The notes: generated by a model not told the origin, from the sequence alone. A stretch of DNA of 64,000 nucleotides from Dictyostelium discoideum (GCA_000004695.1 CM000151.3:1248001-1312000); one strand, 5' to 3'; shown: positions 3,605-30,322, numbered from the stretch's first letter. Numbers and translations: made by a program.

Positions 3605-7395
<3,791 letters not shown>

Positions 7396-7769
7396 AGTTT
7401 AATTTTAAAGTTGTAATTATTTGTAAAAAAAATAAAAAAAAATTAAAAAAAATAAAAAAAAAAAAATAAAAAAAAATTAAAAAAATAAAAATAAAAAAAA
7501 TTAAAAAAAAAAAAAAAAAAAAATAAAAATAAAAAAAAAATAAAATTAAAAAAATAAATAAAAAAAATAAAAATATTGATCAATATTCACAAACACAAAA
7601 AAAATCATACTTGGAAAAAAAATAACAAATTCTTACACACACCTTTGTTCAATAGATTTTTTATTAGATCGGTATGAAATATAATTTAGAAATTATTTTT
7701 GAACACCACACAAGATAATAAAAATTAAAAAAAACCATTTAAATTAATTATTTATTTTATTTTATTTGG

Positions 7770-7800
<31 letters not shown>

Positions 7801-8466
7801 CTTTATCTGGAACGATGTTTTGCAAAGCAACATATCCCAATACACCTTTTTTAATTTTATTAATTCATTATCTTCCTTTTTTCCCATATTATTTAAATTT
7901 GATTATCTATTTAATGGGGAATTAGAATGAGATATTTCTTTTTTTATTTTTATCAATTCTAACTTTTTTAAAAAAAAAAAAATAAAAAATAAAAAAAAAT
8001 AAAAAAAGTAAATTTGTTAAAGAAAGAAACTTGTTTTATTTTATTTTTATTTATTTTAAAAAAATAAAATTAAGACTCTTAATTATTAAAATTAATATTA
8101 ATTTATTTATTTATTTACTTATTTATTTTTTTTTTATAATTTCTAACTGATGTAAAAATTAAATTGAATATTAAAAACCATTTACTATCATATTTCCATA
8201 TTTTATCCCTTTTAGGTTTGGCAATAAATAAAAGAAAAAAAAAAAAAATGAAAATCCATTTTTATTTTTTTTTTTTTTTATTTTTTTTTTTTTGATATAT
8301 TTTTTAACAAAATAAAAAAAAAAAAAAAAAAAAACTATTGAGGTTGTATTTTAAAAAATAACACATTTTATTTATTAATTTTTTTTTTTTTTTTTGTGTT
8401 ATTATTAATTATTTTTTATTTTGTTATTATTTTTTTTTTTTTTTTTTTTTTGATCCAAACCTTTGG

Positions 8467-8568
<102 letters not shown>

Positions 8569-8633
8569 CCAAAAAAAAAAAAAAAAAAAACTGTGAAGTG
8601 GCTCTTATTGTGCTAAAAAAAAANNNNNNNNNN

Positions 8634-8723
8634 NNNNNNNNNNNNNNNNNNNNNNNNNNNNNNNNNNNNNNNNNNNNNNNNNNNNNNNNNNNNNNNNNNN
8701 NNNNNNNNNNNNNNNNNNNNNNN
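8634..8723. other. Assembly gap (90 N) flanked by long poly(A) and poly(T) tracts
   Basis: Run of N characters. A50 and T30 homopolymers sit on both sides. Confidence 0.99.
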
Positions 8724-8811
8724 AACTCTCTCTTTTTTATATAGTGTAAACAATTTTTCAAAAAGTATATTAAAATAAAATAAAATAATATATTTCATAT
8801 TATAGCGGTTA

Positions 8812-8879
<68 letters not shown>

Positions 8880-8943
8880 AAAAAAAAAAAAAAATGAAAA
8901 CTAATATCTCTTAATTTGAAAAAAAAAAATATATATATACACA

Positions 8944-9057
8944 GAATCGAGATACTTGCATCATCAACCAAACATTTTCAATCAATATGTAGAAGACTAT
9001 ATAGAATATTTGCACATGCATTTTATCATCACAGAGAAGCTTATAATGAATATGAAG
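8944..9057 (+). CDS. Orphan internal exon of a MOB kinase activator (Mob1/phocein) family gene; partial, possibly a pseudogene fragment
   Basis: The translation IEILASSTKHFQSICRRLYRIFAHAFYHHREAYNEYE matches the conserved MOB core (..KTILKRLFRVYAHIYHQHFDSV..QEE). It is preceded by an ..ACACAG acceptor and followed by a GTAATA donor. The upstream exons would fall in or before the N gap. I found no downstream HLNTSFKHF-type exon in the 1 kb that follows. Confidence 0.5.
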
Positions 9058-9159
9058 TAATATTATTTTATTTTATTTTTTTTTATTTTATTATTATTTT
9101 ATTTTATTTTATTTTATTTTTGTTTCATTACTAACAATCAAAAATAATTATTTTTTTGG

Positions 9160-9205
<46 letters not shown>

Positions 9206-9401
9206 ACAATAACCAGAGTAAAACTTTATTACATAAAAGATTTGTAAAATTTTGTTTAAAGAATAGTTTATTACCAAAATCGGCAATCATTATAAAAGAA
9301 AATTAATTCAAAAAAATAAACCCTTTGTAAACTTAAATCATTAAAATAATAGCGCAATTTTAAATTTATATAACCATGTATCAATAAATATAAATAAATA
9401 A

Positions 9402-9435
<34 letters not shown>

Positions 9436-9581
9436 AATTATTTGTAAAAAAAAAAAAATCATTTGCCTAACCTTTTTTTAAAAATAAATGTATGTTTTTA
9501 TAACTTAATATTTTATTTTATTATTATATTATTTTTTTTTATTTTTTTTTTTTTTAAAATTAATAAAATGGATTCGAGTAT

Positions 9582-9622
<41 letters not shown>

Positions 9623-10762
9623 TAATTTAAATCTTAACAAATTCAAAATAAAAAAATAATTATGATTAAAAATAAAATGGGGAACTTGGTTTAAATTACA
9701 ATTTAAAAATTATAATAAGTTGAGAAAATAAAAAAAATAATTTGATTAAAAAAAAAAACAAAAACAATAAAATAAAACAAAACAAGAAATAATTTGATTA
9801 AAAAAAAAACAAAACAAAAACAAAAACAAAAACAAAATAAAATAAAAACAAAATAAAAAAAAAATAAAATAAAATAAAATAAAATAAAATAAAAAAAGAA
9901 AAAAATACATATGTATATACAATGTATATATCATATTTTATTATATTAAAAAAACAAAACAAAAACAAAATAAAATAAAATAAAATAAAAAAAGAAAAAA
10001 ATATATTGTATATCTCATTTTTTTAACAAATATGTTGCCTCTATCTCATTGTTTTGAAAATTTCGCGCAAACTAAAAAAAAAAAAAACCAAATTTTTTAT
10101 TTTTTTTTACATTGGAATGTAAAAGCTGTGTCAAAATTTTACATTTCCAGTGATAATTTTTTTTTTTTGGCATCACAATTTTTTTTTTACGGCGTCTCGG
10201 GCTGAAAAAAAAAAAAAAACATTTCAGAAGGGTCTTTTTCAATTTTCATAATACACGTATAATGTAATATTTCAATCTCTCATTTTTTTTTTTTCTAATT
10301 AAAAAAAAAAAAAAAAAAAAAAAGTAAAAAATAAATAAAAAAGAGAGAATAAGGTGAAGAAAAAAAAAGATTAATGGCAGCCACGAATATAATAAATAAA
10401 TAACAGTGATAAAAAAAATAATAAAAAAAAAATAATAAAAAAAAAAAACCGAGTTGAGAAACAGAAATGGTTTAAGTTAGCAAAAAAAAAAAAAAAAAAA
10501 AAAAACATATAGTAAAAAAAAAAAAAATAATAATAAAAAACAGACTCGACAGAAATAATAGAGAGAACACTTACAATTGGATAGGACAAAATATTTAAGA
10601 AAAAAAAAAATAGTATTATATGACTGATAGAGGAAAAAATACAAATAAAGAAACAACGAAACAGATCTATTATTTCCAACACAATCACCAACGTTGCTGC
10701 TGGGTTTTTTTTATTTTTTTTATCACTCTTTTCCATCAATTTTTTACTTTTTTTTATTTTTC

Positions 10763-10799
<37 letters not shown>

Positions 10800-10877
10800 A
10801 TTTCGAACCACCTTCTAATATTTTTTTTTTATTTTTTTTTTTACACAAATTCCCATCATCACAATAATAGAGAAAAT

Positions 10878-11135
10878 ATGGCTAGAGAATTATGGTTAAC
10901 TCACCCAAGAAACTTCGGTCCAGGTTCCCGTACCTGTCGTAAATGTGGCAACCATCACGGTATCATCAGAAAATACGACTTAAACATGTGCAGACGTTGT
11001 TTCCGTACCGACGCTGAAGCCATCGGTTTCAACAAAGTAAGTCTTTATATTATTTTTTTTTAAAAAAAAAAAGAAAACATTTAACTAATATATTTTTTTT
11101 AAATAAATCAATTTTAATAACTTTAGTACCGTTAA
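10878..11135 (+). CDS. rps29: 40S ribosomal protein S29, two exons: 10878..11036 and 11127..11135
   Basis: [53 protein letters not shown]|YR is 55 aa and carries the zinc-binding CxxC..CxxC of S29/S14. Intron 11037..11126 has a GTAAGT donor and a CTTTAG acceptor. The ATG has an A-rich context. Confidence 0.9.
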
Positions 11136-11237
11136 GCTCTATATAATTATTTTTTATTTAAATAAAAAGAAACGATTAGAAAAGCAATTTAGAAAAAAAA
11201 AAAAAAAAAAAAAAACCACTCTTTTTTTATATATTTT

Positions 11238-11360
11238 TTTATTCCTTTTTTTTTATTCTTTTTTTTTTATTCCTTTTTTTTATTCCTTTTTTTTATTCCT
11301 TTTTTTTTATTCCTTTTTTTTATTCCTTTTTATTCCTTTTTTTTTTATTCCTTTTTTTAT
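11238..11360. repeat. Tandem repeat of a roughly 16-17 nt unit (TTATTCC followed by T8-9) with about 9 copies, 3' of rps29
   Basis: Direct reading of 11221-11360. Confidence 0.8.
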
Positions 11361-11740
11361 GACGGAAGACCATTGTTTAAAATTTTTAATTTTTTTTTTT
11401 ATCCTTTTTTTTTTATTTTTTAAAAACGAGCAATGAACAAATAACTCTGTGATCAACCAACACTACTACAACAATCGCAACAAAACCAATTCGAATTCCG
11501 CTCAAACGATCAGCACCAACTTCAAAAACCATCGGTGCCAATTTCGAAACACATCATTTTTTTTTTTTTTTTTTCAACACTTTATATTTTTAACAAAAAA
11601 CAAAAACTTTAAAAAATAAAATTTAAAAATATAATTTTAAATAATCAAATAAAATAAATATATATACATATATATAATTTTAAATAATTAAATTATAATC
11701 AGAAATATACAAAGACTAAACTTTTATTTTTTTTGATAAA

Positions 11741-14700
11741 TTAATTAATTAAAACCAAAGAAAATGAAAATGATACACTAGTCAACACTAAACCTTGGCC
11801 AAAAAGCGACCCTAATTGCAGTAAATTTGAATTTGCAACAATGAAAATTATTAATTGTGCCAAATTAATATAGTTATTTAAATCTCTTGATGAGTTATTT
11901 GAGGAGGTGGCCAAGAAGAAATAAAAGGACATATAAACTATTTGAATTGAGGTATAATAGCAGTATAAAATTGTATTAAAGATATTGAGTTGAACATCAA
12001 AGGTATTACAAAAAGTTGAAATAAATGACCAAATCGATTTCCAATAATATACTTTTGAATTTGATTTTTCATTTATTCTCTTTTTTATTTTTTCTTTTAA
12101 AAATCTGGGGCACCATGTTTTTTCAATTATTGTCTTCTCTGAATCATTTATATTTTTTTTCCTATTTCTAATGCTATTATTATTTGCTATTAATGGTATT
12201 TTCTCGTAAATTTTAATTAAAACTATAGGCGTAATATCAGTTGAACCAATTAAAAATAATGAAATTATAATTGAAAACGATAAAAAGCTTTTGAAATTAT
12301 AATTTAAACCCTCCCATAGACAATAACCATCTAGCATGTCTACTGACATTCCGAATAATGGTAAAATGTAAATACCACTATATGAAAAGAATACTACTGA
12401 ATTAATTTGAAGGAATATTATAATTTGACTAATTGGTATTCTAAAACTATTATGTTTAATTAACGATAATACTAATGCAAATATTAAATGGAATACTAAA
12501 ATTGGTATTAAAAGTATTGGTTTGAAATGTGAGAAACATCTTATACCATTCTTTGTTTGGACTTTATTACCATATTCATCTTTACAGCCAAAGTATAAAT
12601 TACCAAAACTTGAATTTGATGTACAAAGATTATAAGAAAGACACATATCCAATGGACATTGTTCAACCATTGAAACATCATTATTACTAAGTAATAGCCA
12701 TCGATTGCAAATACAGTTGAGGTGAAACAATTCATTATATTTGTATTACATGGGTAGCACCGATTCAACGATTGGCTAAATGCATAATTATTTGGACGAT
12801 AATTACAGGTTTCATTAACCAAAGAGAGATATTGGTATGGTAAACAGCCATCAACATAGAAAATTTGTTCTAAATTTAATGTTGGATCTACATATTGCAC
12901 TAAATACATTTCACCTATATCACCTTTAAACTGATAAAGGAATGCCTTTACCTGCCATAATACTTAAAGAGAACTTGGTTGAACTATCTAAAAGTCTAGT
13001 AATACTAATATTTAATGGCATTGACAAAGACGCAAATGTATTATTAAAATAGTCAAAAAAATAAAATTCTACCAAAGTATCAACACCATTTATAACATTT
13101 ATACTATCATTTGAAAATATTGCTTTTTGTAATTCTTTTAATAAAAAAAAAAAAGAAAAATTAGTAATTTTATTTTATTATTATTGTTATTTATTATTTT
13201 TACATACCAGAAGAAAAATTAGGACCACATAAGGAGGTATTATTTTCAAAATTATTTAATTTTATTATTTGAAAATGAGAAATTTTCAGTGTAAATTACA
13301 CCGCCTTGTTGTGAACCAATATTTGAAGAGAATTTATTATTGATAAATTTAGAGATTGGATTTATGAAAGCATCATTTTTATTTGAATAAGCACCACCAA
13401 ATTGAAATACACCACCAAATTTCGCAATATTAAATGATGCAATTAAATCTGAAATTTTAAAATAATTAAAAGTAATTGAATTAAAAAATGATTAAGATTA
13501 GAATTTATTAAATTCATACTATCACCTAGATTCCAATAAATTTAGAATTTAACATTGTAATATTAGATTCAATAGTTTGAATAAAATAATATCGATTACC
13601 AATTATTTTTAATTATTAAATTTACAGATTGAAAATAAAAGAAATTTGATGATATTATATTATCAACAATAATTAATCTATTCATTGAAAGATTATTAAT
13701 TTCATTAAAAAATATTAATGATGAAGATGATATAGAAAATGGTGATGAGTTTTGATTAATTGTTACAATTTTATTATTTGTAAAATTAAAATTTGAAATT
13801 TTCATAAACACCATTAATCAAAATTAAATATTGAGTTAAATAATTATTAACCATGGAAATTGAATTTAAAATTATTTCATTACAATTTTCAATTGAAAAT
13901 AAATAGTCATATGGTATTTTATTATCATTATAAATTAAAGTATTTATATGTAAACTTTTATCATTTGAACTTTTTAAAAAGGAACCAACATTTTCATTAA
14001 GTTTTATAGAGTTAAATATTATTAAACTTGCATTTTCACTTATAATCATTGGTGAGAATGAATTATCAATGAAATTAGTTGAAATTATTTAAAAATGAAT
14101 TGATTGATTTCATTGAAAAAGTTGATAACCAAAACCATGAATATTTATAAATAATGAATTTGAAATTATTATAGAATCTGAATTAGATTGAAATAATCTA
14201 TATTGTGTAAAGAAATTTGTCATTACCAATTGATTTATAATTATATTTGAACCAAAACCATCTAAAAATACATCACCCAATGTATCGATTGTGCAAATAT
14301 CAATAGTAATATTTGATATGAAACTATCAATTAATGAAGTTGATGGTATATATGTTTGTTCAAAAGTACAATTATAAAAATCCAATGTTGAATGACCAAT
14401 AGTAAAAACAGGTACACTTAGAATTATACTTAGAATTCTTGTATTTACTAAAGTTATACTAGATCCATTTGTTGATACAACAATACCAGTACCCGAATAA
14501 CCAAATATACTATCAACAATATATAAATCACTAATGTTTTCAACCAAGAATGCTGTACTTTTTGTTGAACATGTTAATGGATCTAAAATGAAATCACATC
14601 TATCAATTACTAAAATACTCTCTTTAGTTAGAGTAAATAAAAATTGATTAAATGAAGCTGACATATTAACTATTAACAATTCAACTAATGCTCTTTCAAA

Positions 14701-16157
14701 TTGAAATGAACCAATACAACTTAATTCCATAAATGAAAAACTAACATTACTCTTTGATAAGTATTGATTATTAACATCATAAACATCATCAGCTGTTGCC
14801 ATTACAATCATTGAATAGAATTTATTATTCATTTCACATGTTGTAATTAATTCACTAATTGTTACATTTGAAACACCAGTCACATCAATTATTGAATCGA
14901 ATGTATTATCTTTGAATTTAATTTTATTAATTTCAATACTACCACCATCACTAAAACCTCCTTTTCTAGTTGATATTAATGAGTTTGATATACAATCTTC
15001 AATGAAAATTGAATTCATTATTATTTCAGAACCTTCACTTGAAATTACCATTGGATTTGAACTTCTGTAACCTTTTATTTTTACATTTTCAATTGATACA
15101 TATGAATACCGATAGGCTATAATTATAATTAATGGATCAACTGATTTGGAAAATGTAATGGTTGTATCTATAATTGATAAAAACAATTGATCATTAAATC
15201 AATATTTTTCTAAATAAAATAATTCATTTGTTAATAACTTTTCTATTGGTAAAGTTTGAGAAATCTCTGATTTTGAAACTAAAATAGTTGAACCTTTAGA
15301 ATCTACTGCTGAATCTCTTCATTTTGAATTGGGTAAAATTTAAATCAAATGAACCTAATGAAATTTCAGTTAGATCAAAAATACTATTATCACTAAATGA
15401 TACACCACAACCACTAATACAAATAATATTACTATTACTACTACTACTACTATTACTACTACTATTACTACTACTATTGCTACTACTATCACCGCTACTA
15501 CTATCACTATTTATTAAATTAAAAACAATTCCACCATTTATAAATGATGAGCCAATGAATCTAAATAAACTATTTGTTGCATTTAATTCACCAGTGAAAA
15601 CTGTAAATCTAAAGGTTGAGTTTACGAATACCATTGATGAATTATTTATATTATTTTCATTTTGACTTGGTATACCATAGCGAGTAGTTTATTATAATAT
15701 CATCATTAAAATTTGAAAAACTATTAATAGAATTAATTCCTGTCATATTCAATGTTATGGACCATTAATTATTAAATTTGTATTTTCAAGATTTAAAAAT
15801 AAATTTTCAATTATTGTTTGATTTTGATTAAAATTATACGGAGATATTGAAATATTATTAAAGTTTGAAATTGAGATTGATTGGCAAGTCAGATTATAAT
15901 TTCCATATCCAATATAAATTTTTATAATTGAATTCAAATTATTTTGATTAAAATTAATATTTTCATAATAATTATTATTAAAATTATAAAATGATTGTTG
16001 TAAAATATTATTTAATATACATAAATCTTGGAATGGATTGATTATTGTTCCATTGCTTTCATTATTACTATTAATAATTAATTGTGTTTTGGGAATGAAT
16101 TAAAATATAATTTATTTGAAAAAAGATAAAATAAATTAAAAAAGTTGGTCGTTTCAT
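11741..16157 (-). pseudogene. Degenerate tandem paralog of the downstream Pmp-like/Cys-rich multi-pass membrane gene. It has frameshifts and internal deletions.
   Basis: Seven or more ORF fragments in different frames (15755..15937, 15296..15634, 14110..15186, 13786..14049, 13596..13814, 12541..12909, 11741..12730) are collinear with the intact gene 16510..21657. The ATG at 16157 reads MKRPTFLIYFIFFQ.. and hits a stop after about 28 codons, and homology then resumes in another frame. Overlapping ORFs at 12541..12730 show a frameshift between ..AIDGYYLV and NNDVSMVEQCPLDMC, which is contiguous in the intact copy. The TM region has large deletions. Stretches such as FKPILLIPILVFHLIFALVLSLIKHNSFRIPISQIIIFLQINSVVFFSYSGIYILPLF are near-identical. 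Confidence 0.7.
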
Positions 16158-16509
16158 TATTACATTATTTAGATTTTGATTTATAAAAAAAAAAAAAAAA
16201 CTAGTAAAAAAAACGATTTTTTATTTAGATATTTTATTAAAAATCTTTTCTTTTTACAATTTTTTCATTTTTTTAAATAAAAAAAAGCAAAACAATCTTT
16301 TTTTTTCTGTGTCATTTTTACATTCTGATTATTATTTTTTTTAATTTTTTTTTTATTTATTTTTTTCTCTCCAATCATTTTTTTTTTTTTTTTATTTAAA
16401 ATATCAAAAAAAAAATTATCAAATATTTTAATATTATTAAAATACTTTCATTTTTTTACCATATTGTTTGGTTTTTTATATTTATTTTGAAATATTATTA
16501 TTACTATTA

Positions 16510-19500
16510 TTATTTAAGTTTTCTTCTAATTTTTTTATTTTTTCCATTATATAATAAAAAAATGGAAATTATTGAGAGTAAAGCAAAAGAGAAAGTGATA
16601 ATGGTTATTATTAAACCTTCATTAAAGAGTGATTTTGATTGTAATAAATTTGAGTTGGCAGTGATTAAAATCACCACTTGTAATAAATTGATAATATTAT
16701 TAAAATCTCTTAAATATTTCCATTTGATTGGATTAATTAACAAAGAAATTATTGTATAAAAGATTTGAATTAATAGAATGATTGGAATGTAATATTGTGC
16801 TTTAAATAATAAAACTATTGATAAAACACAAATAATAATTGATCTGGAGTTTATGACAATTGGAAACCATTTAAAGTTTGTTCTGTATTCTAATTGATAT
16901 TGTTGAATCTTTAATAGAGATTCTGTAATTCTATTTTTAAATATTCGATTACCACCAATTTTAAATTTAGACAATAATAATATTAATTGCATAAATAAAA
17001 CAATGGCTAAAATTATAAAGATTAAAATTGCAATTAAAATACAAGCTTGATTTGAATTTGATTGAAAATCAATTGAAAAATCTACTGCTAAATAATTTTC
17101 ACTACCAACTTGTTTTGAAATTACTAATGACATTGCATTGAATGCTAATGGAATTACAAATAATTGAAATAACGACCAAATGGATTTCCAATAATAAATT
17201 GATCTATGCTTAATTTTTCCTTCTAAAATTTTAATTATGTAATTTGGATATTTTGCTATTGGTTGTTGTTGTTGTTGTAGTGGAGTTATATTTCTATCAT
17301 TAATTAACAATGATAAATTTCTATTATCTTTTCTTGTTGAAATTTTTTTATAAATTTTAATTATAATTGAAGGTGTAATATCAGTTGAACCAATTAAAAA
17401 TAATGAAATTATAATTGAAAATGATAAAAAGCTTTTGAAATTATAATTTAAACCCTCCCATAGACAATAACCATCTAACATATCTACTGACATTCTGAAT
17501 AATGGTAAAATGTAAATACCACTATATGAAAAGAATACTACTGAATTAATTTGAAGGAATATTATAATTTGACTAATTGGTATTCTAAAACTATTATGTT
17601 TAATTAACGATAATACTAATGCAAATATTAAATGGAATACTAAAATTGGTATTAAAAGTATTGGTTTGAAATGTGAACAACATCTTATACCATTCTTTGT
17701 TTGAACTAAATTACCATACTCATCTTTACAACTAAAGCATAAATTACCAAAACTTGAATTTGATGTACAAAGATTATAAGAAAGACACATATCCAATGGA
17801 CATTGTTCAACCATTGAAACATCATTATTCACTAAATAATAACCATCAATTGCAAATACAGTTGATGCCAAACAATTCATTATATTTGTATTACATGGAT
17901 AACATTTTCCTAACAATTGACTAAGGGCGTAGTTATTTGGACAATAGGTACACATTTCACTCGTTGTATTATAGAATTGATATGGCGAACAACCATCAAC
18001 ATAAACTTTTGCAAGCACTGGTGTTGGACTATTCACACCAATTAAATATTCATCATTAATACTACCAATGAATTCAAATGTGAATTTACCCATTCCAGCA
18101 TTAACATTATTTGTAACATTCATCAAATGATTGGTTGATGTTCTATTAACATAAATAGTAAGTATTGAAGAGAATGGAGTAAACAAATTACCATAATAAT
18201 CTACAAATTGATATTCAATTATTGATGAACCATCATCAACAACTTGACTAATTGGATTTGAAAGTTGTGGATTTTTCATCATATCTATTTAATAATAATA
18301 TTAGTATTTATTTTATTATTATTATTATTATTTTTTTTCAAAAAAAAAATAAAACTTACTTGATGAAAAGTTTGGACCACAAAATGCAGTATTGCCAATA
18401 AAAAAATTAGAGTTAAGAACTTTGGTCATATTTTCATTGAAAGGAGAATCTGTTGTATATACAACACCGCCTTGTTGTAAAGCTCGATTATTTATAAAAG
18501 AATTATTTTCTATTTTAGATAATGGGTTATTTAGAGACTGGGGAGAGTTGAAATAAAGTACACCACCATAGATACCAAAGTTTGTAGTCAAAAGAGATTG
18601 TACAATAACAAACCATTGAAAACTATCATCTATTAAGTAGTCTGGGAAAAATGATAATATTGCACCCGTTCCATTTTCAAAAAAATTTGAATCTATTGAA
18701 CAACCATAAATTGTTATATTTGAATTTATGACCAATATTAAACCCTTACCATTACCTTGATTTCCATTAAAATAAGTTAAAGAAATTGAAACTTCTGAAC
18801 TTTTAGATTCAATTAAATAGTTGGATTCTGAATATAAACTTATATCACTTTGAATGGTATTTGAAGTGAATTGTGAATTTTGAATATTAACACTACCACT
18901 ACAACTACTACTACCGCTACTACTGCCGCTACTACTGCCACTACAACTACCACTACTACCACCACCAACACCACTTCCAGTATTACTATAACTATTACTA
19001 TAACTATTACTATTACTATTGTTACTATTATATTTACTAAAGACACAATCATAAAAAGTTAAAAATGTAGTACCAATTTGATTATTTCTAATATTAAAGT
19101 TTTTGATTAATACATTGGAAACTTGAGTTAATGATATAAAACCACCTAATCCATCAAATTGATTGTAAGGACATAATAGCATTGGAACATGAACTATTAA
19201 ATTATTGCCAAATTCGAAAGTATCGATTTCAAATGTTTCAGCATTAAAAGAACTAATGAAAAATTGAGTGAAATAATTATTATTGATAAATATTTGATTT
19301 AAAATAATGGTTTTGGTACTATCTGAACTTAAAAGATAGTTAATTGGTAGTCTACTATCATAGAATTCGAGAAATGAAATTGAAATCAATTGATCATCTT
19401 TACTATTTATAAATGAACCTGTATTATTTGAATAAAGAGTTTCAACGAATTCTATGGTCGAATTTACACTTTTAATCAATGGATTAAATGAATTTCCGTT

Positions 19501-21174
19501 GAATTGAGTTTGAGTGATATTTAAAATTGAACCATTTAAAGTAAACATTTGATAACTTAAACCATGATTACCATCAAATACTGAACTTGCAATGAAAATA
19601 TAATCATCTACTGATGTTATCAATTGACTTTGTGTAAAACTTTGAGAAACATTAACAATATTCATGGAGATCTTTGACCGTGATGAATTGAATAGTTGTT
19701 GACTAACCAATAGAAAGTTAGTCTCACTAATATAAACCAATGAACTCTCTGATTGAATTAAAGATGATGAACTAATTCTACAATTGTTAAATAGTGTAGA
19801 ATATATCTCCAATATCGAGTCATCAGCAACGGTAATTATCGGCTGACTGGTTTGAAGGTCAATAAATTTTGAATTGTTATCAATTAACACAGAGGAATTC
19901 TTCACAGCCATCACTATTGGTACTGCGCTATCAAAGAAATTAGATTGTGATATTGTTATTGAACTTTGTTCGAAATAGAAAAGTTGATTAATTTTACCAA
20001 ATGGATTTGAAATGAAATCACTTGATATAATATTAACTATGCTCCCTTGATAGCCATTTATGAATGAATCACTACCTATTGATATCATTGTTACAAATTC
20101 GAAATTAACAATTGAATTTCTGAACTCAAATGAACCTTCAATAGATTCCAAGAAAATATTAGAGAATTCAATACTACTCGACATTTCGAAACTATTTTCA
20201 TCTTTTGGCATCGACAAAAACTTTTGAATTATATTATTTTGTGTAGAGTTAATTGATAGATTTGAAATTTCAATATTTGATGAATTACGTGCTTCTAACA
20301 TTGTCTCAAAAATACAATTTGTAAAAATTAAATCACTGATTACTAAATTTGTATTCTCCATTGTAAACATTGATGGTGAAACGCAATTATCAAATTCCAC
20401 CAACTCCAATGATATTGTTATATTTCCACCATAGGATGTCGATGCAAACATTGACTCATATTTATGAAATCCTATCATTCTAATATTATACAATATAATC
20501 AATACATCTTGCTCAATATCAAGTGAAACTATTAATGAAAGTGCGCCATATTTAGGATTGGCTCTAAATTCTGAATTTAGAATAGTAATTTTTGAGCCAT
20601 TTTCATTGAATAACTCTTTATCTATATTAATAATGCCAACACTATTATAATATTCTGACCATAATTTTAGGTCATTTTGATTAAATAATATATTTTCAAA
20701 TTTACTATTATCTGCTACTGTAAATAGTACAGTTTCTTGCCATATTGAATTTTTAACATTTATATCACTAAATCCCATTTGAAAGAAACTTCCCATTACT
20801 TTAGAATCTATAATTTCTACTCTACCACCACCACCACTACTAGCGAATTTCGGATTTGAATTGAAATTAATTGATACTTGTTTTAATGTTGATTTTTGAA
20901 AATATAGTAAACTATCCTCTATCATATATTTTTGATCATAGATTGATGATATCATTGTTGAATTTATTAATTTAATCACTGAATTTGAAATTATACTATA
21001 TATATTATATTTATCCTTGAAAATTATATAAGCATTATCTATAATATTCATTTCACTATTACTTATATTCCAACTACCATAAAATGTTATAAAAGGTCCT
21101 TGAATATAAAATTTTGAATTTATTATTTTAAATGAATTATAAATTGAAACTTTTTGTTCTCCTTCTTCTTCTTC

Positions 21175-21254
<80 letters not shown>

Positions 21255-21397
21255 CTTTACTACTGCTACTATTACTTATATATGGTTTGAATGTAACATT
21301 TTTACAATTTAAAATTAAAAATTGATAACAATTTGTATCATTGTATATACCATATCCTATATTTACTATTATTATAGATGTAGCTATATTATTATTA

Positions 21398-21435
<38 letters not shown>

Positions 21436-21657
21436 ATTATTAAGTATTGATTCTATTTGACAAATGCTATTGTATGGATTTATAATTGTTCCATTACCAT
21501 TATTTTGATTGTTTGAATTTATGTAAATATTTATTATATTATTATCTTCATATTGGTTAATATTATTATTATTATTATTAATATTTTGTGAACAAACGTT
21601 ATTTAAAAAAATAAAAATTAAAAAAATAAAAGTTAATGAATATTTATATATTTTCAT
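16510..21657 (-). CDS. Large secreted and multi-pass membrane protein: signal peptide, long Pmp-like (GGA[IV], FxxN) beta-helix-type N/S-rich ectodomain, GCC2/GCC3-like Cys-rich module, then 7-9 TM helices. Two exons: 21657..18360 and 18284..16510.
   Basis: It starts MKIYKYSLTFIFLIFIFLNNVCSQ (signal peptide). The ectodomain has repeats such as GTGAILSF, GGVLYF, FINNRALQQGGVVY and FIGNTAF. Intron 18359..18285 (GTAAGT..AAATAG) joins ..GPNFSS|NMMKNPQLSNP in phase 1. The Cys-rich region is CSPYQFYNTTSEMCTYCPNNYALSQLLGKCYPCNTN..CKDEYGN..C. The C-terminus has several hydrophobic helices. An (AAAT)17 array sits in the 5' leader. The family assignment is a hedged inference. Confidence 0.7.
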
Positions 21658-21680
21658 TGTGTGTAGGTATTATTGTTACT

Positions 21681-21682
21681 AT

Positions 21683-21749
<67 letters not shown>

Positions 21750-21753
21750 TTTT
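21681..21753. repeat. (TTTA)n array of about 18 units immediately 5' of the large membrane-protein gene's ATG
   Basis: Direct reading. Confidence 0.9.
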
Positions 21754-22770
21754 ACAGGCAATCATCTTAATTATTTTTTTTTAAAAATAAAAAATTGTAA
21801 AAAAAAAAAAAATCACTGGAAAAATCTTTGGGAAATATCTTTTCTTTAAAATTTGAAATAATTGAAAAAAAAAAAAAAAAGAAGACCGAATTTTCTTTTA
21901 AGATAATAATGGATATTTTTTAAAATTTTATTTCACACGTCATTAAATTAAAAATAAAAAATAAAAAAATAAAAATTAAAATTAATAGCGCCCACAATAA
22001 ATCATTTTGATTTATTTTAATTTAAATTATACATTTTGGGTATACCAAAAATAAATTTATTATTTGAAAAAAAATTCATTTAAATGATTAACTATGTCTA
22101 AAAACTTGGTAATCATAATTCTCAATACATGTTAAAAATTATCTAGGAACAGAATAAAGAGATTAAAGATTTCCATAATAGTTTTTGATTAAAAAAAAAT
22201 AATAAATTATTATGATTTTTTTTTTTTTTTTTTTTTTGTCAATAAATTTTAATAATTTTGTTTTATTACATTTAAAATATATATATATAATTCAATAGAT
22301 TGATTATTTTTGTGTAAAAAGATCTGTTTTCAAGATTTATATTAAGATTTCCCACTATTTATGTTTTTAATAATAATAATAATTGTATGGCTACATCTGT
22401 AATAATTTTTTTTTTTTGTCATGGTGGGTGAGCTAGTGGTTGTGTTGAAATTTTTGGTGAAATTATTATTTATTTATGTGCATATCTAAATACAAATTTG
22501 TTTTATTTTGTTTTACTACTCACCATAACTTAAATTGTTCCCATTTTGAGTTTTTTTTTTTTTTTTTTTTTTGGACAACACTAAGCCCAGATTGAATCTT
22601 TCTGTGTTTATCAGAATATATTCCTAATTTTATTTATTTTACAAATATTAAAAATTAAATATATTTATGTTTTTGTTTCATATAAAAAGAATATTTTTTT
22701 GTTTTTTTTTTCAATAAATAAAAATTATCAAAACAAATTACTAAATATACAAAAAAAAAAAAAAAAAAAA

Positions 22771-23085
22771 ATGCCAATTTTAGGTAAATAATATAAAAAA
22801 AATATAATAAAATGTTTAAAATTTTTAAAAAGTAATAATAATTTTATTAATTTATTTTTTTTTTTATTTTTTTTTTTAATCCAAATTTTAAATATTAACA
22901 ATTCAGGATCCATAAGCACATTTTCACAATTTAATGTAAAGAAAAGTAAAAATGATTCAATTTCATCATTTTTAAAATCTAATGTTGGGTATTCAAATTC
23001 AATGGTTAGTGAAATAGATGGTAGATTCGATAATCTTCCTATTATTATCCAAAAACCACCAAATAAACCAAATGCTTACATTTAA
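22771..23085 (+). CDS. Hypothetical small protein (63 aa), two exons: 22771..22783 and 22907..23085
   Basis: AAAAAATGCCAATTTTAG|GTAAAT..(T-rich)..ATTCAG|GATCC gives MPILG|SISTFSQFNVKKSKNDSISSFLKSNVGYSNSMVSEIDGRFDNLPIIIQKPPNKPNAYI*. The donor is canonical, the acceptor has a polypyrimidine tract, and the exon is less AT-rich than its surroundings. I could not assign a family. Confidence 0.4.
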
Positions 23086-23353
23086 TCAAGAAAACAAGAT
23101 TTTATTTTGAATTTAAAAATAAAATTATTTCTTTAAGTTTTCTTTTTGTTCATCAAATTTATTTTAATAAAATATTTTATTTTAAAATCCATTTTTATTG
23201 CTTACAATTAAAAATAAAAAATATATAAAGAGATAAAATAGAAATAAAAAAAACTAATAAATAAAAGAAAGGATCCAACACATTTTAAAAGTTTTTTATT
23301 TTTTTTTATTTTTATGTTTAAAAAAATATTAATTTATTAAATTTTAAAGGTTA

Positions 23354-26300
23354 TTAATCCCAAGAACTATTGTTATTGTTATTTTGACCCCATTGATTTT
23401 GTTGTTGTGGTGGTACATTCCATGGTTGATTTGGTGGTCTGTTAAATTGTTGTTGTTGTTGTGGTTGTTGTGGCATTTGGCCATATGGTTGTTGTTGTTG
23501 GCCATATGGTCCTTGTTGTTGTTGTTGTGGTGGACCCCATTGATTTGGAGGTCTGTTATATTGTTGTTGTTGCTGATATTGTTGTTGTGGTGGCATTTGT
23601 CCATATGGTTGTTGTTGTGGTGGTCTTTGTTGATATTGTTGTGGTTGTTGTTGTTGGTATTGATTGTCGTTCCAACTTTGTGGTCTTTGTGGTGGTTGTT
23701 GTTGTTGATATGGATTATATTGTTGTTGTTGTTGTTGTGGTTGCTGTTGTTGTGGTGGTTGTTGTTGATATGGCTGTTGTTGTTGTTGTTGTTGTTGTGG
23801 TGGTTGTTGATAAGGTGGTCTACCTTGAGAGTATGGTTGTTGTTGTGGCATTTGCCCATATGGTTGGTTTGGTTGTGGTTGTTGTTGGTAAACTGATTGA
23901 GGTGGTGGTTGTTGATATTGATTTGGTTGTTGTTGTTGATATTGATTTGGTTGTTGTTGTTGATGTTGAGGTCTTTGTGGTGGTTGTTGAGTTGATTGTT
24001 GGAATTGTTGATGTTGTGATCTTTGTTGAGACATATTATTATTATTATTAGAATTATTATTAGAATTATTACTACTATTTTTAATATTATTATTATTATT
24101 ATTTGAAACAGAACGTGAAGAAGTATTTGAAGGTAATCTTTGATTTGATGTATTATTATTATTATTATTACTTGATGAACCACTACTACTACTACTACTA
24201 CTACCTGGTTGTAATAATTGAGCATAATTTCTTTTAAAATATTTAATTAATTCATAATAAGTTGGATAAAGTTTTTTTCTTAAGATAAAGCCATCAGCTT
24301 TAACTAAAACAGGTTCATGTCTTGGAGTATTTGAAGGTACATGATAGAGTGTAAGGAAACCTGGATGTTCGAAATCATAACCGAAATAATAAGGAATCGT
24401 TTTTGGATTCTTTTTCTTTTCTTCTCTAATTAGATCATCAACATCTGAACGATTACCATCCTTCCAATGGGCAGTATTTGATTTGACTTCATTGAGATTG
24501 TTTATTAAATATTCTACATGTCTAGCCAAGATTTCATCCAATGAATCATATTTTACATCACCCATATAGAAAGATTTACCTAAACTTACTGCATTTGGTT
24601 TATCGGCTTCTTTAATGTCATGATGTAAGAATATACTATCGGCAAATTTGAAGGTAGCAGTGATATGATCATGACCTTTACTTGATGGACGTAATAAAAC
24701 ATCACCAATTGGTTTATCACTTAAATAGGTTTCAGCCTCTAAACAACTAAAGTCATGCCATAATGGATGAACCACGGTTCTTTTTATTCTTCTTTCTCTC
24801 TTTGGTTTTCTCTTTGTTTGTTCTACTGGTGGAGCAACCTCTTCAAGACGTAAATATTGATTAGCACCATTCTCTTTCAATTCACGGAAAATAGTTTCCT
24901 CCCAGAAACTTGGATTAAGATCCGATGGTTTACAAGATAATGAAACGGTGAATTGATATTTATCAACACCCATCACTCTACAATTGATAGTGACACCTCT
25001 ACCTAAAGATTTAGTTTCCCCATTGTCACTGATACAATCGGTTGGAATGGAACCTTCTAAACCATTATCCAATCTACATTTGACTGAATTATCAAAGGTA
25101 CGAATAGTGGTTACAGTTACGAGGGTACCTCTTCTTAATGATTGATTGGTTTCACCTGTTAACCATTCAAAGATTGTATCGGCCGATGGCTCTTCATATG
25201 GATGTCTAATATCGGCGAATGGATTTGTCAACTCTTTCTTTATGAAATATAATAACTTTCTAGCTGGACGATCCTCATGTGACTCGATGATATCAGCAAA
25301 ACCATCCAAATCTAAACGATCCAATTTCTTTGGTCTCTTTATGATATCTTCAATGTAGGAATGGAAATTTCTTTCATCTAAATTCTTATCCAATGCTTCG
25401 GCTGCGATACGATAAGTGATTGGATAAGAGGTTGGATGAATTCTTGTGTCATCCAATAGATCAGCTTTATAGTCTGCTGCATGTCTTTCACGAATTTGAA
25501 TGAAACCAATACAATTTCTATAGATGACATCTTGACTCAACACCTTCTCCAATGATTGTCTGCTAGTGACAAAACCACCACGACGGAATAAAGAATTTAA
25601 TAACATTTGAGCCTTTCTTGAACCCAAACCACTGACAAATTGTAAAGTAGCCGATGTGAATCTACATTGAATCATACGATTGATATCTACACCCACTGCA
25701 TTGACGACATTAATGAAACAACGATGTAATAATTTCACCAAATAATCCTTACCAATCATATCTTGAAGTGGATGTAACTTTAGGAATAGGATCTCGTTAT
25801 GATCGTTGCACAATGATGCATACTCTGTGATTGGATCCAATGCACAACGACCCACAGCAATTGTGTGTCTAAGAATTGGTGGATACTCTTTAAACTCTTC
25901 TTGTAATCTTGATGAGGTTTGTAATGATAAACCAATCTCTGGACTATAATAATTCAAGAGTACACTCTTTCTAATGATACGTCTCTCACCATTGGACCAA
26001 CGTTGAAGATGATCTTTCACCTCTTCATAGAGACGTTTACTATCCATCTCTGTTGCACTTACCAACACCAAACGTGGTTGATACTCTTGACAAATCTCCT
26101 CCAATCTCTTTATATCCTTTTCTTTCTTCTCTTTTAATGACTCACCTAAACGATCACAAATGAAATCCAATTTAATATGTGACAATACTTCACCATCTGA
26201 ATTTAAAACTGCACCCATAGTTGGAATTTTATCTGAACCCCAACAAAGTGATAAAATTTTAAATGGTATTGGATTACCATCTCTATCGTAATCAACTTCT

Positions 26301-28784
26301 TCATCATCATCTTCATCTTCGTCATCATCATTACTATAACCGTTATTTGCTCTTGAACCACCAAATAGTACACTTGAATTTGAATGACCAATACCACTAG
26401 ACGAAGAAACTGGTCTCCAAGGTGCAACACGAATTTTGTCTTCCAATTTCTTTGCACATTCAAAAGCCACACGATTACTTGCTTCGGTTAATAATTTATT
26501 TCTTAATTCTTTCTCTAAAACTGGATAAAGGAATTTATTTAATGCTTCACGAATGATAAGTTTTCTTTGTTCATTCCATTGTTGAGTGATTGCTGATGTA
26601 CCATCACTTAGATACAATGATTCCATCTCTGGAATGATGACGGAATTATGAGTTTTCTCGGTGATTGCCATAGTGGATTTGATGAAACCTTCCTTCTCTG
26701 CTTTGAGAATCAAAAGATATTGAGAGTCTTCAAAGAGATGAGCTGGTTTCTCTTGAATACTTTTCACTGTGAAATAAGGATGGAAAACATCAATCTCTTT
26801 GAACCCTTTCAAAGTGGGTGTGGTTGTAATATGTGCATACTTTCTATAGATCATTCTAACCGAGTAACGTACATGTGGATCATATCCAATCTCTTGTGCC
26901 ATCATATAACGAGTTGCTTGTAAAACACGATCTTTATTATCAGCCTCCAAACAAATGTGAACCAATGCCATTGTCGATGGTTCTGCCATTTGGTCTCTAG
27001 GTTTGTTGGTTGTATAATTATCCATTAAATTTTGACCAAATTCTTGTGCTGTCATACCAAAATTTGGTAAAAATTTTGATAACCCTGCTTTAGTATAAAT
27101 TGTATAAAGATCTCTCTTGATTGCTTTCTTTTGTCTACTTAAACCACCAACTGTATTACCTTGAGTTGCACTACTACCACCCTCTTTATCATCATAACCA
27201 TCGCCACCACTGCCTAATGATGAACTACCATTTAAAAGATTAGTATTCTTTTGAATACCATTTATCATTTGAAAAAGATCATAAAGATCAGAGATACTCT
27301 CTTCGGAACGACTCTCCAATAGAACCGATTTATAAGGCTCCAATTGTTGATTGTTTGAACCGATTTGCTCTAAATTTCTTTTATTCACCTTCATATGAGC
27401 CCATTTCTCGTCGAGATCAAATATATTCCAAAGTTCTTGAAGGGTGAAATAAGGTTCATAGATGTCCTTTTCATAGGTGTAGATGAATGGTATCTCCAAG
27501 AGATCACGTTGAATGAATTGTAATATCTTAAAGATCGCTGTGATTGCCTTTGCGTCTCTAACAGGTTCAGTATTTGGATTTCTTTGTTGCTGTTGTTGGA
27601 AATCACGTTGTTCAAATGCAACTTCATAAATCCATTCAGCTTCTTCTTCACAAGCCATCTCACCTGCATATTGTGTACCCTTTCTACTTTGTAATCTCTC
27701 TGGTACATTCTTATTACGAATTTCCTCATCAGCATCTGTAAAATGTTTCTCTTCCAATAATGATGGTTCGTATTGTTCTCTGATCGCTGCTAATCTATCC
27801 TTGGCTCTATCAGCTTCGGTTTTATTTATACCTGAATCCTCCTCTTCCTCTCCACTACCATATCCTTCTTCCTCATCATCATCGAAAATATCACTCATAA
27901 TTCTAGAACGATTAGAACTCTCATAGCTCATACGTTCACGCTCATGACTCCTCTTTACTGGTTTACCATGTGAATCAACTACAAATCCATCATCCTCTTG
28001 TTCACCATTATATCCATCCTCTACATCATCTTCTTTATCTGATAAATCTAATTATTATTATATTAAAATTAATATATATTATATTATACTTTTGTTTTTT
28101 TTTTATATTATTTACCTTTATTTGAAGCTCTTAATTTCTTTAAACGTTGTAAACCACCTTTTTCACGTTTTCTTCTCTCTTCACGTCTTTTTCTTCTTCT
28201 TTCTCTTCTAGCTTGTGCAACTTCTTCGTCCTCTTCAGATTCAGATTCAGATTCACTTCCATCTGATCCATCATCACCATCTTCATCACCATCAATATCT
28301 TCATCAAGATGATTATTGGTTCGTTTTGGGCTACTACTATTACGGCCACCACTACCACCACTACCTCCACTACCACTACCACCACCACCACCACGATCCT
28401 CCTCCTCTTCTTCTTCATTATCATCTTCATTATCGCTATTTGATGATGATTTCTTTCTTTTTTCTTTTTTCTTTCTTTTTCGACGTTCATCGTCATCACC
28501 ACCAACCACGAAATCATCATATTGATACTGATTTGGTTCATTTTCATCCTCCTCACTACTATCATGATATTCCTCTAGTTCTGATGATTCATCATCTTTA
28601 TTTTTATTTAAATTCTTGAATTTCTTTTTTGGATGAATATTTTCTTCATTTTCAATTTCATCATCACTATAATTTTCTAGATTTTATTTAATTTTTTTAT
28701 TTAATTTTTTAATTTAATTTAATAAATTTGTATTTCTTATGTTTTATATTGAAAAAAAAATAATAAATACATACTTGAACTCAT
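23354..28784 (-). CDS. spt6: Transcription elongation factor SPT6, three exons: 28784..28775, 28676..28116, 28047..23354
   Basis: The first coding exon is a 10-nt micro-exon, ATGAGTTCAA, with a GTATGT donor. Exon 2 encodes the acidic N-terminus (..ENEPNQYQYDDFVVGGDDDERRKRKKKEK..SESESEEDEE); the ORF-track M at 28509 is a GTG. Intron 2 (28115..28048, GTAAAT..AATTAG) joins ..RASNK|D|LSDKEDD.. in frame to the 1525-aa body. The body has YqgF/HhH/S1-like regions and a C-terminal SH2 domain (HPLWHDFSCLEAETYLSDKPIGDVLLRPSSKGHDHITATFKF). The Q/P/N-rich tail comes from (CAA/CCA)n. Confidence 0.85.
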
Positions 28785-29151
28785 TTATGATTTCTATATA
28801 TAAAATGTATATAATATGTATTTATTGTGTAATGAGCTGTGTTAATATCTCCTATATAATTAAAATATTGTTGAATATAGGTGATTTAAAAAAAAAAAAA
28901 AAAAGAAAAAAATAAAAATAAAAAAAGTTGAAACTATTTATTTTTTATTTTTTTTATTTTTTATTTTTTTTTTTTTTATTATTAACTATTTTTATAAAAT
29001 TTTTTTTTTTTTTTTTTTTTTTTGTTTTGATTTTTATATGGTAAAAAGAATAAATAAAAGACTAGTTCAAATAAAAAAATTATATTTAGTATGCAACTGA
29101 AGCCTATTTGAATTCAAAAAATTGAAAAAAATTAAAAAAAAAATTTAAAAA

Positions 29152-29184
<33 letters not shown>

Positions 29185-30286
29185 TGAAAAAAAAAAAAAT
29201 AAAAATAAAAATGAAAATAAAAAAAGAGAATGAACATGAGAAAAAAAAAAAAAAATTAATTAAAAAATAAAAAAAAGAAATCTGATGATTTTAAAAAAAA
29301 TAAAAAAAAGATAAAAAAAGAGAAATCATTTTTCTTTTTTTATTTTTACTTTTCTTTTTATTTTTTATTTTTTTTTTATTTTTCTTTTTATTTTTTTTAT
29401 TTTTTATTTTTTTTTTTATTTTTTTCTTTTTATTTTATTTTTTTTTTTTTTATCGTTCAGCACCGAATCGATATTTTTAACCCCACTTTGGAATTGAAAT
29501 AATTTTTTTTTTTCTTTTATCATTATTACCGTTTTGGTTTTGGATTTCCAATTTTTTCCTTTTTCTTTTTATTTTTCCATTTTTTTTTTTAAAAAAAATA
29601 TTATTTTCCTTTATTTTTAATTAAAGTGTATTTATTTAGAATTTAAATTAAAACTAAAACTAGTTTTTATTTTAATTTATTTTTAATAATTAAATAAAAT
29701 TTTAACTTATCTTTCAAAATATTTATTTATTTTTAAAAAAAAGAGAGGGAGACTTGTGAACTTCCAATTTTTTCCTTTTTCTTTTTTTTCTTTTTTTTTT
29801 TGCTTTTTTTTTTCTTTTCAAATTTTTTTTTTAGTTTTTTCAAAGTAACAATTTGTTCGTGTGGTCAATTCTAAAAAAAGGTAAAAAACAGTGTTTAAAA
29901 CAATAGTTTATAACTTGTTAATTTGGTGTTACAATAATCTTTAAAATTTTTAAAATTTTAAAATAAAATTTTTTTTTAATAAAGACGACCATAATTGGGG
30001 GTGGAGGGGGGAAATTAATTATAATAATTTTTGTGATAAATTTGGATATTATCTATTTATATCACTTTAGGAAAAGAAATAAAAATAAAATAAAAATAAA
30101 CTAAAACTAGTTAAACAATTTTTTTTTTTTTTGATTTATTTCTTTTTATTTTTTTTTTTTTATTTTTTTTCCATATTATTTTGTCTTGCAAGTAATAACT
30201 TTTTTTTTTTTTTTATTTTTTTATTTTTTTTTTTATTTTGTTTTCATTCTATTTACGGGGAGTTATAATGATTTTAAAATTAAAAA

Positions 30287-30322
<36 letters not shown>

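Follow-up and report, generated by a model that had tools for sequence, protein, structure and literature searches.

A predicted beta-helix, cysteine-rich, nine-helix membrane protein of Dictyostelium discoideum and its probable ancient, pseudogenised tandem paralog

We analysed a stretch of 64,000 nucleotides from Dictyostelium discoideum (GCA_000004695.1, CM000151.3:1248001-1312000), called the window here, in which a tandem pair of related genes occupies positions 11741..21657. The first, gene A, is intact and codes for a large predicted membrane protein. The second, copy B, lies directly downstream in the same orientation and is disabled. Both are on the minus strand, as are all features given below unless a plus sign is added, and positions are counted from the first letter of the window. 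In the AX4 gene order, the Spt6 gene stands upstream of gene A, and the spacing between A and B is only 353 bp.

Gene A consists of two exons. Exon 1 (18360..21657) begins with the ATG at 21657 and contains codons 1-1099 together with the first base of codon 1100; a GTAAGT donor follows right after 18360. The intron (18285..18359) is 75 nt long, AT-rich and runs from GTAAGT to AG, and its position is kept in copy B and in the B ortholog of Dictyostelium dimigraforme. Exon 2 (16510..18284) supplies residues 1100-1690 and the stop codon. The spliced coding sequence of 5073 nt is in frame, its sole stop is the terminal one, and the product has 1690 amino acids (aa). An initial annotation of the window had described a two-exon gene for a protein of about 1700 aa with a signal peptide, and this description was borne out: the gene runs from 21657 to 16510 without an internal stop, and its N-terminus, MKIYKYSLTFIFLIFIFLNNVCS (21589..21657), was judged by inspection of the sequence to be signal-peptide-like. 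Long poly-asparagine tracts are found at 21150..21420, and a tract rich in serine and glycine at 18883..19026.

The locus was compared with three other assemblies. The first, a D. discoideum assembly made independently (GCA_054883475.1, locus L003), was aligned to window positions 24052..8851 (15.2 kb) and was 99.8% identical, with 2 mismatches and 8 indels. A sister lineage (assembly GCA_054859355.1, JBTAPG010000035.1, locus L001) was compared with window positions 2917..31325; its substitution identity to AX4 was 92-97.6% (2.4-8% diverged), with a synonymous divergence (dS) of about 0.10 in gene A. Because this divergence is far above the level expected within a species, the L001 assembly, although labelled D. 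discoideum, may come from a cryptic sister species. The third was the D. dimigraforme locus (L002), which carries orthologs of both A and B.

The DNA of gene A is identical in L003. The ortholog in L001 is intact, with a 1655-aa model and about 94-95% amino acid identity, and the D. dimigraforme ortholog is also intact, with a 1680-aa model. The ratio of nonsynonymous to synonymous divergence (dN/dS, Nei-Gojobori) was 0.30 against L001, where dS was 0.10, and 0.45 against D. dimigraforme, where it was 0.41; by region it reached its minimum of 0.14 in the immunoglobulin (Ig)-like and cysteine-rich part and its maximum of 0.65 in the membrane-proximal ectodomain. Since the coding sequence is in frame, the orthologs are intact and dN/dS lies at 0.30-0.45, gene A appears to be a functional gene under moderate constraint by purifying selection. 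We also noticed that the ortholog models in L001 and L003 are 21-35 aa shorter than that of gene A. In L001 the length difference falls largely in the N-terminal poly-asparagine region; in L003 it is a difference in the gene model only, because the DNA is identical across gene A.

The ectodomain of gene A (18361..21150, residues 170-1099, about 930 aa) includes the serine- and glycine-rich stretch at 18883..19026 as a low-complexity linker, and its fold was approached through the relatives of the protein. Scans of the full product and of five segments with the Pfam and NCBIfam libraries gave nothing significant. The chlamydial profile Chlam_PMP (PF02415) reached 11.6 bits in gene A (E=0.39; gathering cutoff 20.6), and it stayed below the cutoff of 20.6 in the paralogs P0009 (17.4 bits, the best of the family) and P0013 (14.7 bits) as well. 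The motif GG[AVIL]x was observed twice in residues 170-1100 where 0.28 occurrences were expected, and FxxN was observed 17 times in the ectodomain against 9.6 +/- 2.8 in shuffled sequences, so that both counts modestly exceed the shuffled expectation. Two to three turns of the form FxxN...GG[AV][IV]Y stand next to the membrane (18364..18600) and are conserved in the family consensus. When a family profile was searched against PDB sequences, the matches were weak and were to beta-helix-type proteins only; the best was Rhombotarget A (9cdu, E=1.1e-4), whose alignment covers the conserved FxxN...GG[AV]xY turns, which correspond by consensus position to residues ~1020-1098 of gene A.

The Beta_helix profile (PF13229) had no direct match in gene A itself. 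It matched 5 of the 24 family representatives described below, three of them above the cutoff of 25.9 (P0018, 50.5 bits; P0020, 48.1 bits; P0021, 28.8 bits). A profile built from gene A and its close paralogs matched P0021 along the ectodomain with E=2e-46, which links the gene A ectodomain by homology to a Pfam-positive beta-helix. A right-handed parallel beta-helix ending in 2-3 Pmp-like turns is therefore a defensible description of the ectodomain, inferred through transitive homology. The initial annotation had proposed chlamydial Pmp-type GGA[IV]/FxxN repeats along the ectodomain. Two to three Pmp-like turns are present, and the family assignment did not follow, with the profile at 11.6 bits where 20.6 are needed. 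Because Chlam_PMP is sub-threshold, the Pmp-like match is confined to the conserved turns and the motif counts are modest, "Pmp-type" would be a fair label at the level of motifs for the last 2-3 rungs and not an assignment to that family. Similarly, the domain searches that had been suggested for the ectodomain found nothing significant in gene A directly, and the beta-helix was reached through the paralogs.

For the membrane-proximal half, we modelled the exon-2 product with AlphaFold (AF2) using an alignment of 14 family sequences (A2), which gave a pLDDT of 78 and a pTM of 0.71; a model made from the single sequence was unusable (pLDDT 41). In the AF2 model there is a beta-sandwich at exon-2 residues 19-95, a string of beta-hairpins in the cysteine-rich segment 98-205 and, after these, nine long helices. 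The sandwich (17998..18228) is Ig-like and resembles filamin and macroglobulin domains. The cysteine-rich module (17674..17991, about 105 aa) is predicted to form the hairpins and is similar at the motif level to TNFR and ephrin-receptor modules; it has 13 cysteines that are invariant over the 14 family members. Its first unit shows the ephrin-receptor-like spacing C-x2-[GP]-x-[FY]...C-x2-C-P-x-G...C-x2-C. Ephrin_rec_like (PF07699), which we take to be the current name of GCC2_GCC3, was absent from gene A at E<=10. Sub-threshold matches to the module were seen in paralogs only: Ephrin_rec_like at 18.6 bits in one paralog (cutoff 23.1), TNFR_ELAPOR1_6th at 16.9 (cutoff 33.2) and DUF7630 at 19.4 (cutoff 27). 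The GCC2/GCC3-like module of the initial annotation thus holds as a cysteine module with 13 invariant cysteines, whereas its family name is not supported, PF07699 being unmatched in gene A and at 18.6 against 23.1 bits in a paralog.

The nine predicted helices (16546..17670) are followed by a short basic tail (16510..16545), predicted to be cytoplasmic. Taking the nine helices as transmembrane (TM) segments, we counted 29 lysines and arginines in the predicted inside loops and 4 in the outside loops. This distribution supports a topology with the N-terminus outside, the C-terminus inside and nine TM segments, and it agrees with the 7-9 TM domain that had been proposed at first. The TM domain had no match to a Pfam family, and a search of PDB sequences with a profile of the C-terminal alignment gave no match. 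A fold search of the helical domain against the PDB returned only generic bundle matches of about 100 residues, with no G protein-coupled receptor (GPCR) in the top 60. There was also no match in gene A to the autotransporter domain of Pfam, the C-terminus being made of nine alpha-helical TM segments.

These properties bear on the main alternative to the receptor or adhesin role that we favour below, namely that the nine-helix domain is a transporter or channel, perhaps ligand-gated, with an ectodomain that serves only for its regulation or anchoring. Such a protein would suit the nine helices, in or beside which polar or charged residues are conserved (Q244, K283, D401, FKWWD, NPxK). The fold matches, however, span only about 100 residues of a generic helical bundle, neither Pfam nor the PDB sequences gave a match, and the domain has no internal repeats or known transporter motifs. 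We regard a transporter or channel as rather unlikely.

An exhaustive phmmer search with the exon-2 product as query against 1.84 billion cluster representatives returned 24 matching representatives, with E from 0 to 5e-9 and lengths of mostly 1000-1941 aa. The source was looked up for 21 of them; the remaining P0005, P0007 and P0011 were checked via cluster listings at most. Twenty of the 21 are dictyostelid (Dictyostelium, Tieghemostelium, Acytostelium, Heterostelium and Synstelium), and the other is a fragment from a sequencing run, whose cluster includes a D. discoideum protein. All of the looked-up representatives are labelled "hypothetical", "uncharacterized" or "transmembrane protein", or only by a beta-helix domain. 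Gene A shares with the family its C-terminal homology, the 13-cysteine pattern and the motifs FLQxNS...ILPLFR...FKWWD, and with the closest paralogs also the homology of the ectodomain. On these sequence comparisons, it belongs to a small uncharacterised family so far seen only in Dictyostelia. The architecture had been called uncommon, and 24 representatives in 1.84 billion, dictyostelid in the sources looked up, agree with that. A word-index homolog search gave one match each for a query spanning ectodomain to C-terminus and for the family profile, which we blame on low-complexity words. The AX4 members found were gene A, DDB_G0272102 (Q55A59) and DDB_G0289049 (Q54I37), and the rest of the window yielded no other copy of the family. 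Neither the spliced product of gene A nor that of either exon alone was present as an exact sequence in the protein collection searched, and two other open reading frames (ORFs) of the window were not on record. A literature search on DDB_G0272352 (the annotated model on copy B, see below), DDB_G0272102 and DDB_G0289049 returned nothing.

It was also considered whether gene A could be a family-3 GPCR of the GrlP/GrlQ/GrlR type. Prabhu et al. (PMC1885808) reported that these D. discoideum proteins, which are metabotropic-glutamate/GABA-B-like, belong to the family-3 GPCRs and that their long N-termini share homology with Chlamydia Pmp; Hall et al. (PMC10445921) placed them in the Grl phylogeny. 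Their overall layout is analogous to that of gene A. On the other hand, the 7tm_3 profile was unmatched in gene A and in all 24 representatives, nine helices are predicted and not seven, and no Grl name occurred among the looked-up matches, though the library contains AX4 proteins. It is very unlikely, in our judgement, that gene A is such a GPCR.

Copy B (11741..16157) starts with an ATG at 16157, keeps a signal peptide, MKRPTFLIYFIFFQINYILIHSQ (16157..16089), and ends in a premature terminal stop at 11743..11741. It retains an intron (13207..13135, GTATGT...AG) at the family position. We scored its lesions against the open D. dimigraforme ortholog (83% nucleotide identity); in this alignment they span 11953..16073. 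There are 13 coding frameshift indels. Those in the 5' half are at ~16073 (-11), 15758 (-1), 15668/15670 (+1) and 15333 (+1), those in the middle at 13806 (-8), 13608 (-26), 13532 (-1), 13493 (-76) and 13264 (-14), and those in the 3' part at 12944 (-2), 12686 (-1), 12026 (+1) and 11953 (-1). In addition, an in-frame deletion of 330 bp at ~11973 removes the equivalents of TM5-TM6, and four substitutions create nonsense codons at 15321, 15201, 14112 and 14091.

Of the 13 frameshifts, 11 also occur in the second assembly, L003, as do the 330-bp deletion and all four nonsense codons. The single-base insertions at 15668 (A) and 15333 (C), each of which shifts the frame when compared with the D. 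dimigraforme ortholog, are absent from L003 and may be reference errors or strain-specific changes. That the downstream paralog keeps its ATG and signal peptide while carrying frameshifts and deletions had been noted initially and was confirmed here. The two frameshift sites named at about 12.73 and 16.07 kb correspond to the 1-bp deletion at ~12686 and the 11-bp deletion at ~16073, and both are real, because the independent L003 assembly shares them.

For B to be an intact gene, its frameshifts would have to stem from faulty assembly or sequencing of the reference. The genome, rich in A+T, is filled with homopolymers, and the insertions at 15668 and 15333 are missing from L003, so that the possibility of uncorrected sequencing errors raised in the initial annotation does fit 2 of the 13 frameshifts. 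It does not fit the rest: L003 has the other 11 frameshifts, the 330-bp deletion and the four nonsense substitutions in identical form, many of the lesions are multi-base deletions (8, 11, 14, 26 and 76 bp), no errors are seen in the adjoining gene A, 5 kb long, or in the Spt6 gene, and the sister lineage has deleted most of B. We give this explanation next to no chance. With an open syntenic ortholog, a retained intron and multiple disabling mutations seen in a second assembly, copy B appears to be a real, non-processed pseudogene, in its origin a unitary pseudogene of an old tandem paralog.

In AX4 a protein-coding model, DDB_G0272352 (Q55A53, 313 aa, "hypothetical protein"), is annotated on the ORF at 11741..12670. 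The sequence P0004 matches this ORF from MVEQCPLDM on, except for the last 8 residues. The model lies wholly on the 3' fragment of B and has neither a signal peptide nor TM5-6; it is likely a mis-annotation of a pseudogene fragment. In the L003 (ACTFIT) annotation, models of 585 aa and 558 aa are threaded around the lesions of B.

By tblastn, the amino acid identity between A and B is 24-31% in the ectodomain and 59-63% in the C-terminal part. At the nucleotide level most segments are 50-65% identical, and there is only one similar block. Copy B and the D. dimigraforme B ortholog, by comparison, are syntenic and 78-83% identical in nucleotides, and in D. dimigraforme the A and B orthologs stand in the same order, upstream of a Mob1 gene. 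The true start of that B ortholog is at L002 11509 (MKLLTFSIYF..., a signal peptide). In the deposited 1941-aa model, KAN0053184.1, the B ortholog is fused via a 480-bp "intron" to about 300 residues that come from an unrelated gene upstream (L002 10001..11001). The D. dimigraforme locus also has a third family paralog directly upstream of the A ortholog (regions L002 1..6441 and 6781..9536 are concerned) and about 5 kb extra between A and B, including a 389-aa gene.

Because the ectodomain of B is only 24-31% identical to that of A and a separate B ortholog lies beside the A ortholog in D. dimigraforme, B is an ancient tandem paralog of A and not a recent duplicate. A recent tandem duplication of A followed by rapid decay could be suspected from the adjacency of the two copies, their common orientation and intron position, and a 660-bp block with 90.7% nucleotide identity. 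Outside the block, however, identity falls to about 50-65% in nucleotides and 24-31% in amino acids, B has a counterpart of 83% identity in D. dimigraforme, a separate gene adjoining the A ortholog, and the block itself is explained by conversion, with paralogs more alike than orthologs in two species. A recent duplication has, in our view, a very slim chance of being correct. Of the decayed tandem duplicate or recent pseudogene of the initial annotation, the disabled adjacent paralog stands; the duplication itself is old, given that the ectodomains are 24-31% identical in amino acids and that D. dimigraforme has an open ortholog of B.

The dN/dS between the D. dimigraforme B ortholog and the B of the window was 0.32, which suggests that constraint on B persisted through most of the period after the D. 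dimigraforme split and that its inactivation came comparatively late. In L001 the interior of B is gone: window position 16088 is joined to 12063, a deletion of ~4.26 kb as measured on the D. dimigraforme ortholog. L001 keeps the 5' end of B and its 3' part, including the 330 bp that were lost in AX4, and no lesion common to AX4 and L001 (the ACTFIW lineage) was found in their short overlap. Since the L001 deletion is separate, the 330 bp are retained and no AX4 lesion occurs in the overlap, AX4 and the sister lineage appear to have damaged B independently.

The block of high similarity between A and B was examined along exon 2. On the side of A the putative conversion tract covers 17375..17829, from the end of the cysteine module through TM3, within a wider similar block at 17342..18003; on the side of B it covers 12230..12685 and starts directly 3' of the -1 frameshift at 12686. 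The core has about 16 differences in 455 bp (96.5% identity), with a perfect run of 180 bp at 17676..17497. In 100-column windows over exon 2, the A and B of the window are about 50-60% identical in the flanks and 92-100% identical between A positions 17900 and 17400. Within the tract, A is 87-95% identical to the D. dimigraforme A and B is 85-92% identical to the D. dimigraforme B, both lower than A against B. The same peak is seen between the two D. dimigraforme paralogs, mostly at 93-100%.

Recurrent gene conversion between A and B over about 0.45-0.65 kb is the better explanation of this pattern, because the dead copy escapes selection at the protein level and the identity nevertheless holds at every site. 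The conversion may have taken place independently in D. discoideum and D. dimigraforme. Another way to keep A and B alike would be strong purifying selection on this segment: the tract encodes the best conserved part of the family (cysteine module to TM3), and all four sequences are mostly 85-100% identical there. But the pseudogene is now free of such selection, all sites over 180 bp are identical including synonymous ones, the paralogs within a genome are more alike than the orthologs between species in both D. discoideum and D. dimigraforme, and the identity drops abruptly to about 50% at the tract edges. Selection instead of conversion seems improbable to us.

Several other features of the window were recorded. 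Its G+C content is about 22%, and its ORFs are rich in asparagine. The 1525-aa ORF at 27931..23354 is the Spt6-like "SH2 domain-containing protein" Q55A48 of AX4, with 100% identity over the full length, so that the window would be AX4 chromosome 2 or a sequence that cannot be told apart from it. No tRNA genes and no Rfam families were found in the window. At 8001..10000 the G+C content is 11% with long T runs, and the lengths of the T runs at 9618, 9433, 9202 and 8894 differ between AX4 and L003. Just downstream of copy B, an ORF on the plus strand (~10875..11063, +) encodes a small cysteine-rich protein sequence, presumably one resembling ribosomal protein S29.

Taken together, we consider it probable that the locus holds an intact, constrained dictyostelid gene of the beta-helix/Ig/Cys/9-TM type and an ancient, pseudogenised paralog, and that the two still exchange sequence by conversion. 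The gene A protein would be laid out as a signal peptide, a fast-evolving beta-helix of about 930 aa with 2-3 Pmp-like turns, an Ig-like domain, the 13-cysteine module and nine TM segments, with the N-terminus outside and the basic tail inside, an architecture like that of a glycoprotein of the secretory pathway. Outside the cell, the variable beta-helix may bind a ligand, as is usual for beta-helix proteins, and a glycan or another cell-surface molecule is the most plausible one. The conserved cysteine-rich and nine-TM core may anchor the protein and relay or transport. Copy B would have been lost in the D. discoideum lineage by pseudogenisation, its interior being deleted separately in the sister lineage.

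Beta-helix ectodomains usually serve adhesins and carbohydrate-binding or carbohydrate-modifying proteins. By analogy with these, and because the ectodomain evolves fast, the cysteine and TM core is conserved and the family turns over through tandem duplication, loss and conversion, a cell-surface receptor or adhesin is the most likely role of gene A, a proposal that we make tentatively. Some of the observations weigh against this picture or limit it. The proposed role derives solely from how the protein is built and how it evolves; gene A has no significant Pfam match of its own, so that its beta-helix depends on transitive homology; and the AF2 model is based on only 14 sequences, so that the missing match for the TM fold could be an error of the model. 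For the D. dimigraforme B, "intact" means that a single assembly shows its ORF without interruption, in a model that fuses an upstream gene, and the dN/dS of 0.32 between the two B copies is not raised, B having been inactivated late relative to the D. dimigraforme split. The restriction to dictyostelids derives from a single-sequence search, the word-index profile search having been uninformative.

A more speculative idea, which we hold doubtful though worth stating, is that the nine-helix domain is an unclassified membrane fold and, with the beta-helix, Ig-like and cysteine-rich ectodomain, defines a Dictyostelia-specific class of surface receptors with turnover by birth-and-death and conversion. 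If this is true, the turnover suggests that the receptors recognise prey, microbes or other amoebae, in parallel to the Grl GPCRs and the Tgr allorecognition proteins but as a system distinct from both. The family, in which an adhesin-like beta-helix is joined to a membrane domain without recognisable relatives, is a candidate system for recognising the environment or other cells, in an organism that is a tractable model. The pseudogene and the A/B conversion are ordinary gene-family dynamics. For annotation, DDB_G0272352 should not count as protein-coding, and the reference bases 15668 and 15333 differ from L003.

The true relatives of gene A are DDB_G0272102 (Q55A59) and DDB_G0289049 (Q54I37) of D. 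discoideum and F0ZDA8 and F0ZYZ5 of D. purpureum, the latter two labelled "Right handed beta helix domain-containing proteins". They have the range of lengths and the cysteine pattern in common with gene A, and the nine-TM core too in those whose C-terminus is complete; in DDB_G0289049 and F0ZYZ5 the match is limited to the first part of this core. Their ectodomains have strongly diverged from that of gene A, so that a single-sequence search finds only the closest paralogs, and no function has been described for any of them. Chlamydial Pmp and the bacterial POMP-repeat proteins such as Rhombotarget A (9cdu) are like gene A in the FxxN...GG[AV][IV]Y turns, which in gene A would lie in a predicted right-handed beta-helix at the cell surface; unlike chlamydial Pmp, gene A has only 2-3 turns and no autotransporter beta-barrel, is eukaryotic, and combines a signal peptide with an alpha-helical nine-TM anchor. 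The Ephrin_rec_like (PF07699) and ELAPOR1 TNFR-like repeats share the cysteine spacing of the first unit of the module, whereas the rest of it (a CC pair and C-x4-C) is unmatched and nothing exceeds a cutoff anywhere. The closest parallel in layout comes from the same organism: GrlP, GrlQ and GrlR also carry a very long, Pmp/parallel-beta-helix-like extracellular N-terminus on a multi-pass domain and also belong to a lineage-specific expansion in Dictyostelia. Gene A differs from them in having no 7tm_3 signature, nine helices, no match to the GPCR fold, and an Ig-like domain and a 13-cysteine module between the predicted beta-helix and the membrane. Since GrlP, GrlQ and GrlR have been reported with such N-termini, a Pmp/beta-helix ectodomain on a multi-pass protein has a precedent in D. 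discoideum, and gene A, with a membrane domain that matches nothing known, is best filed as another beta-helix-ectodomain multi-pass receptor, a kind already seen in Dictyostelium.

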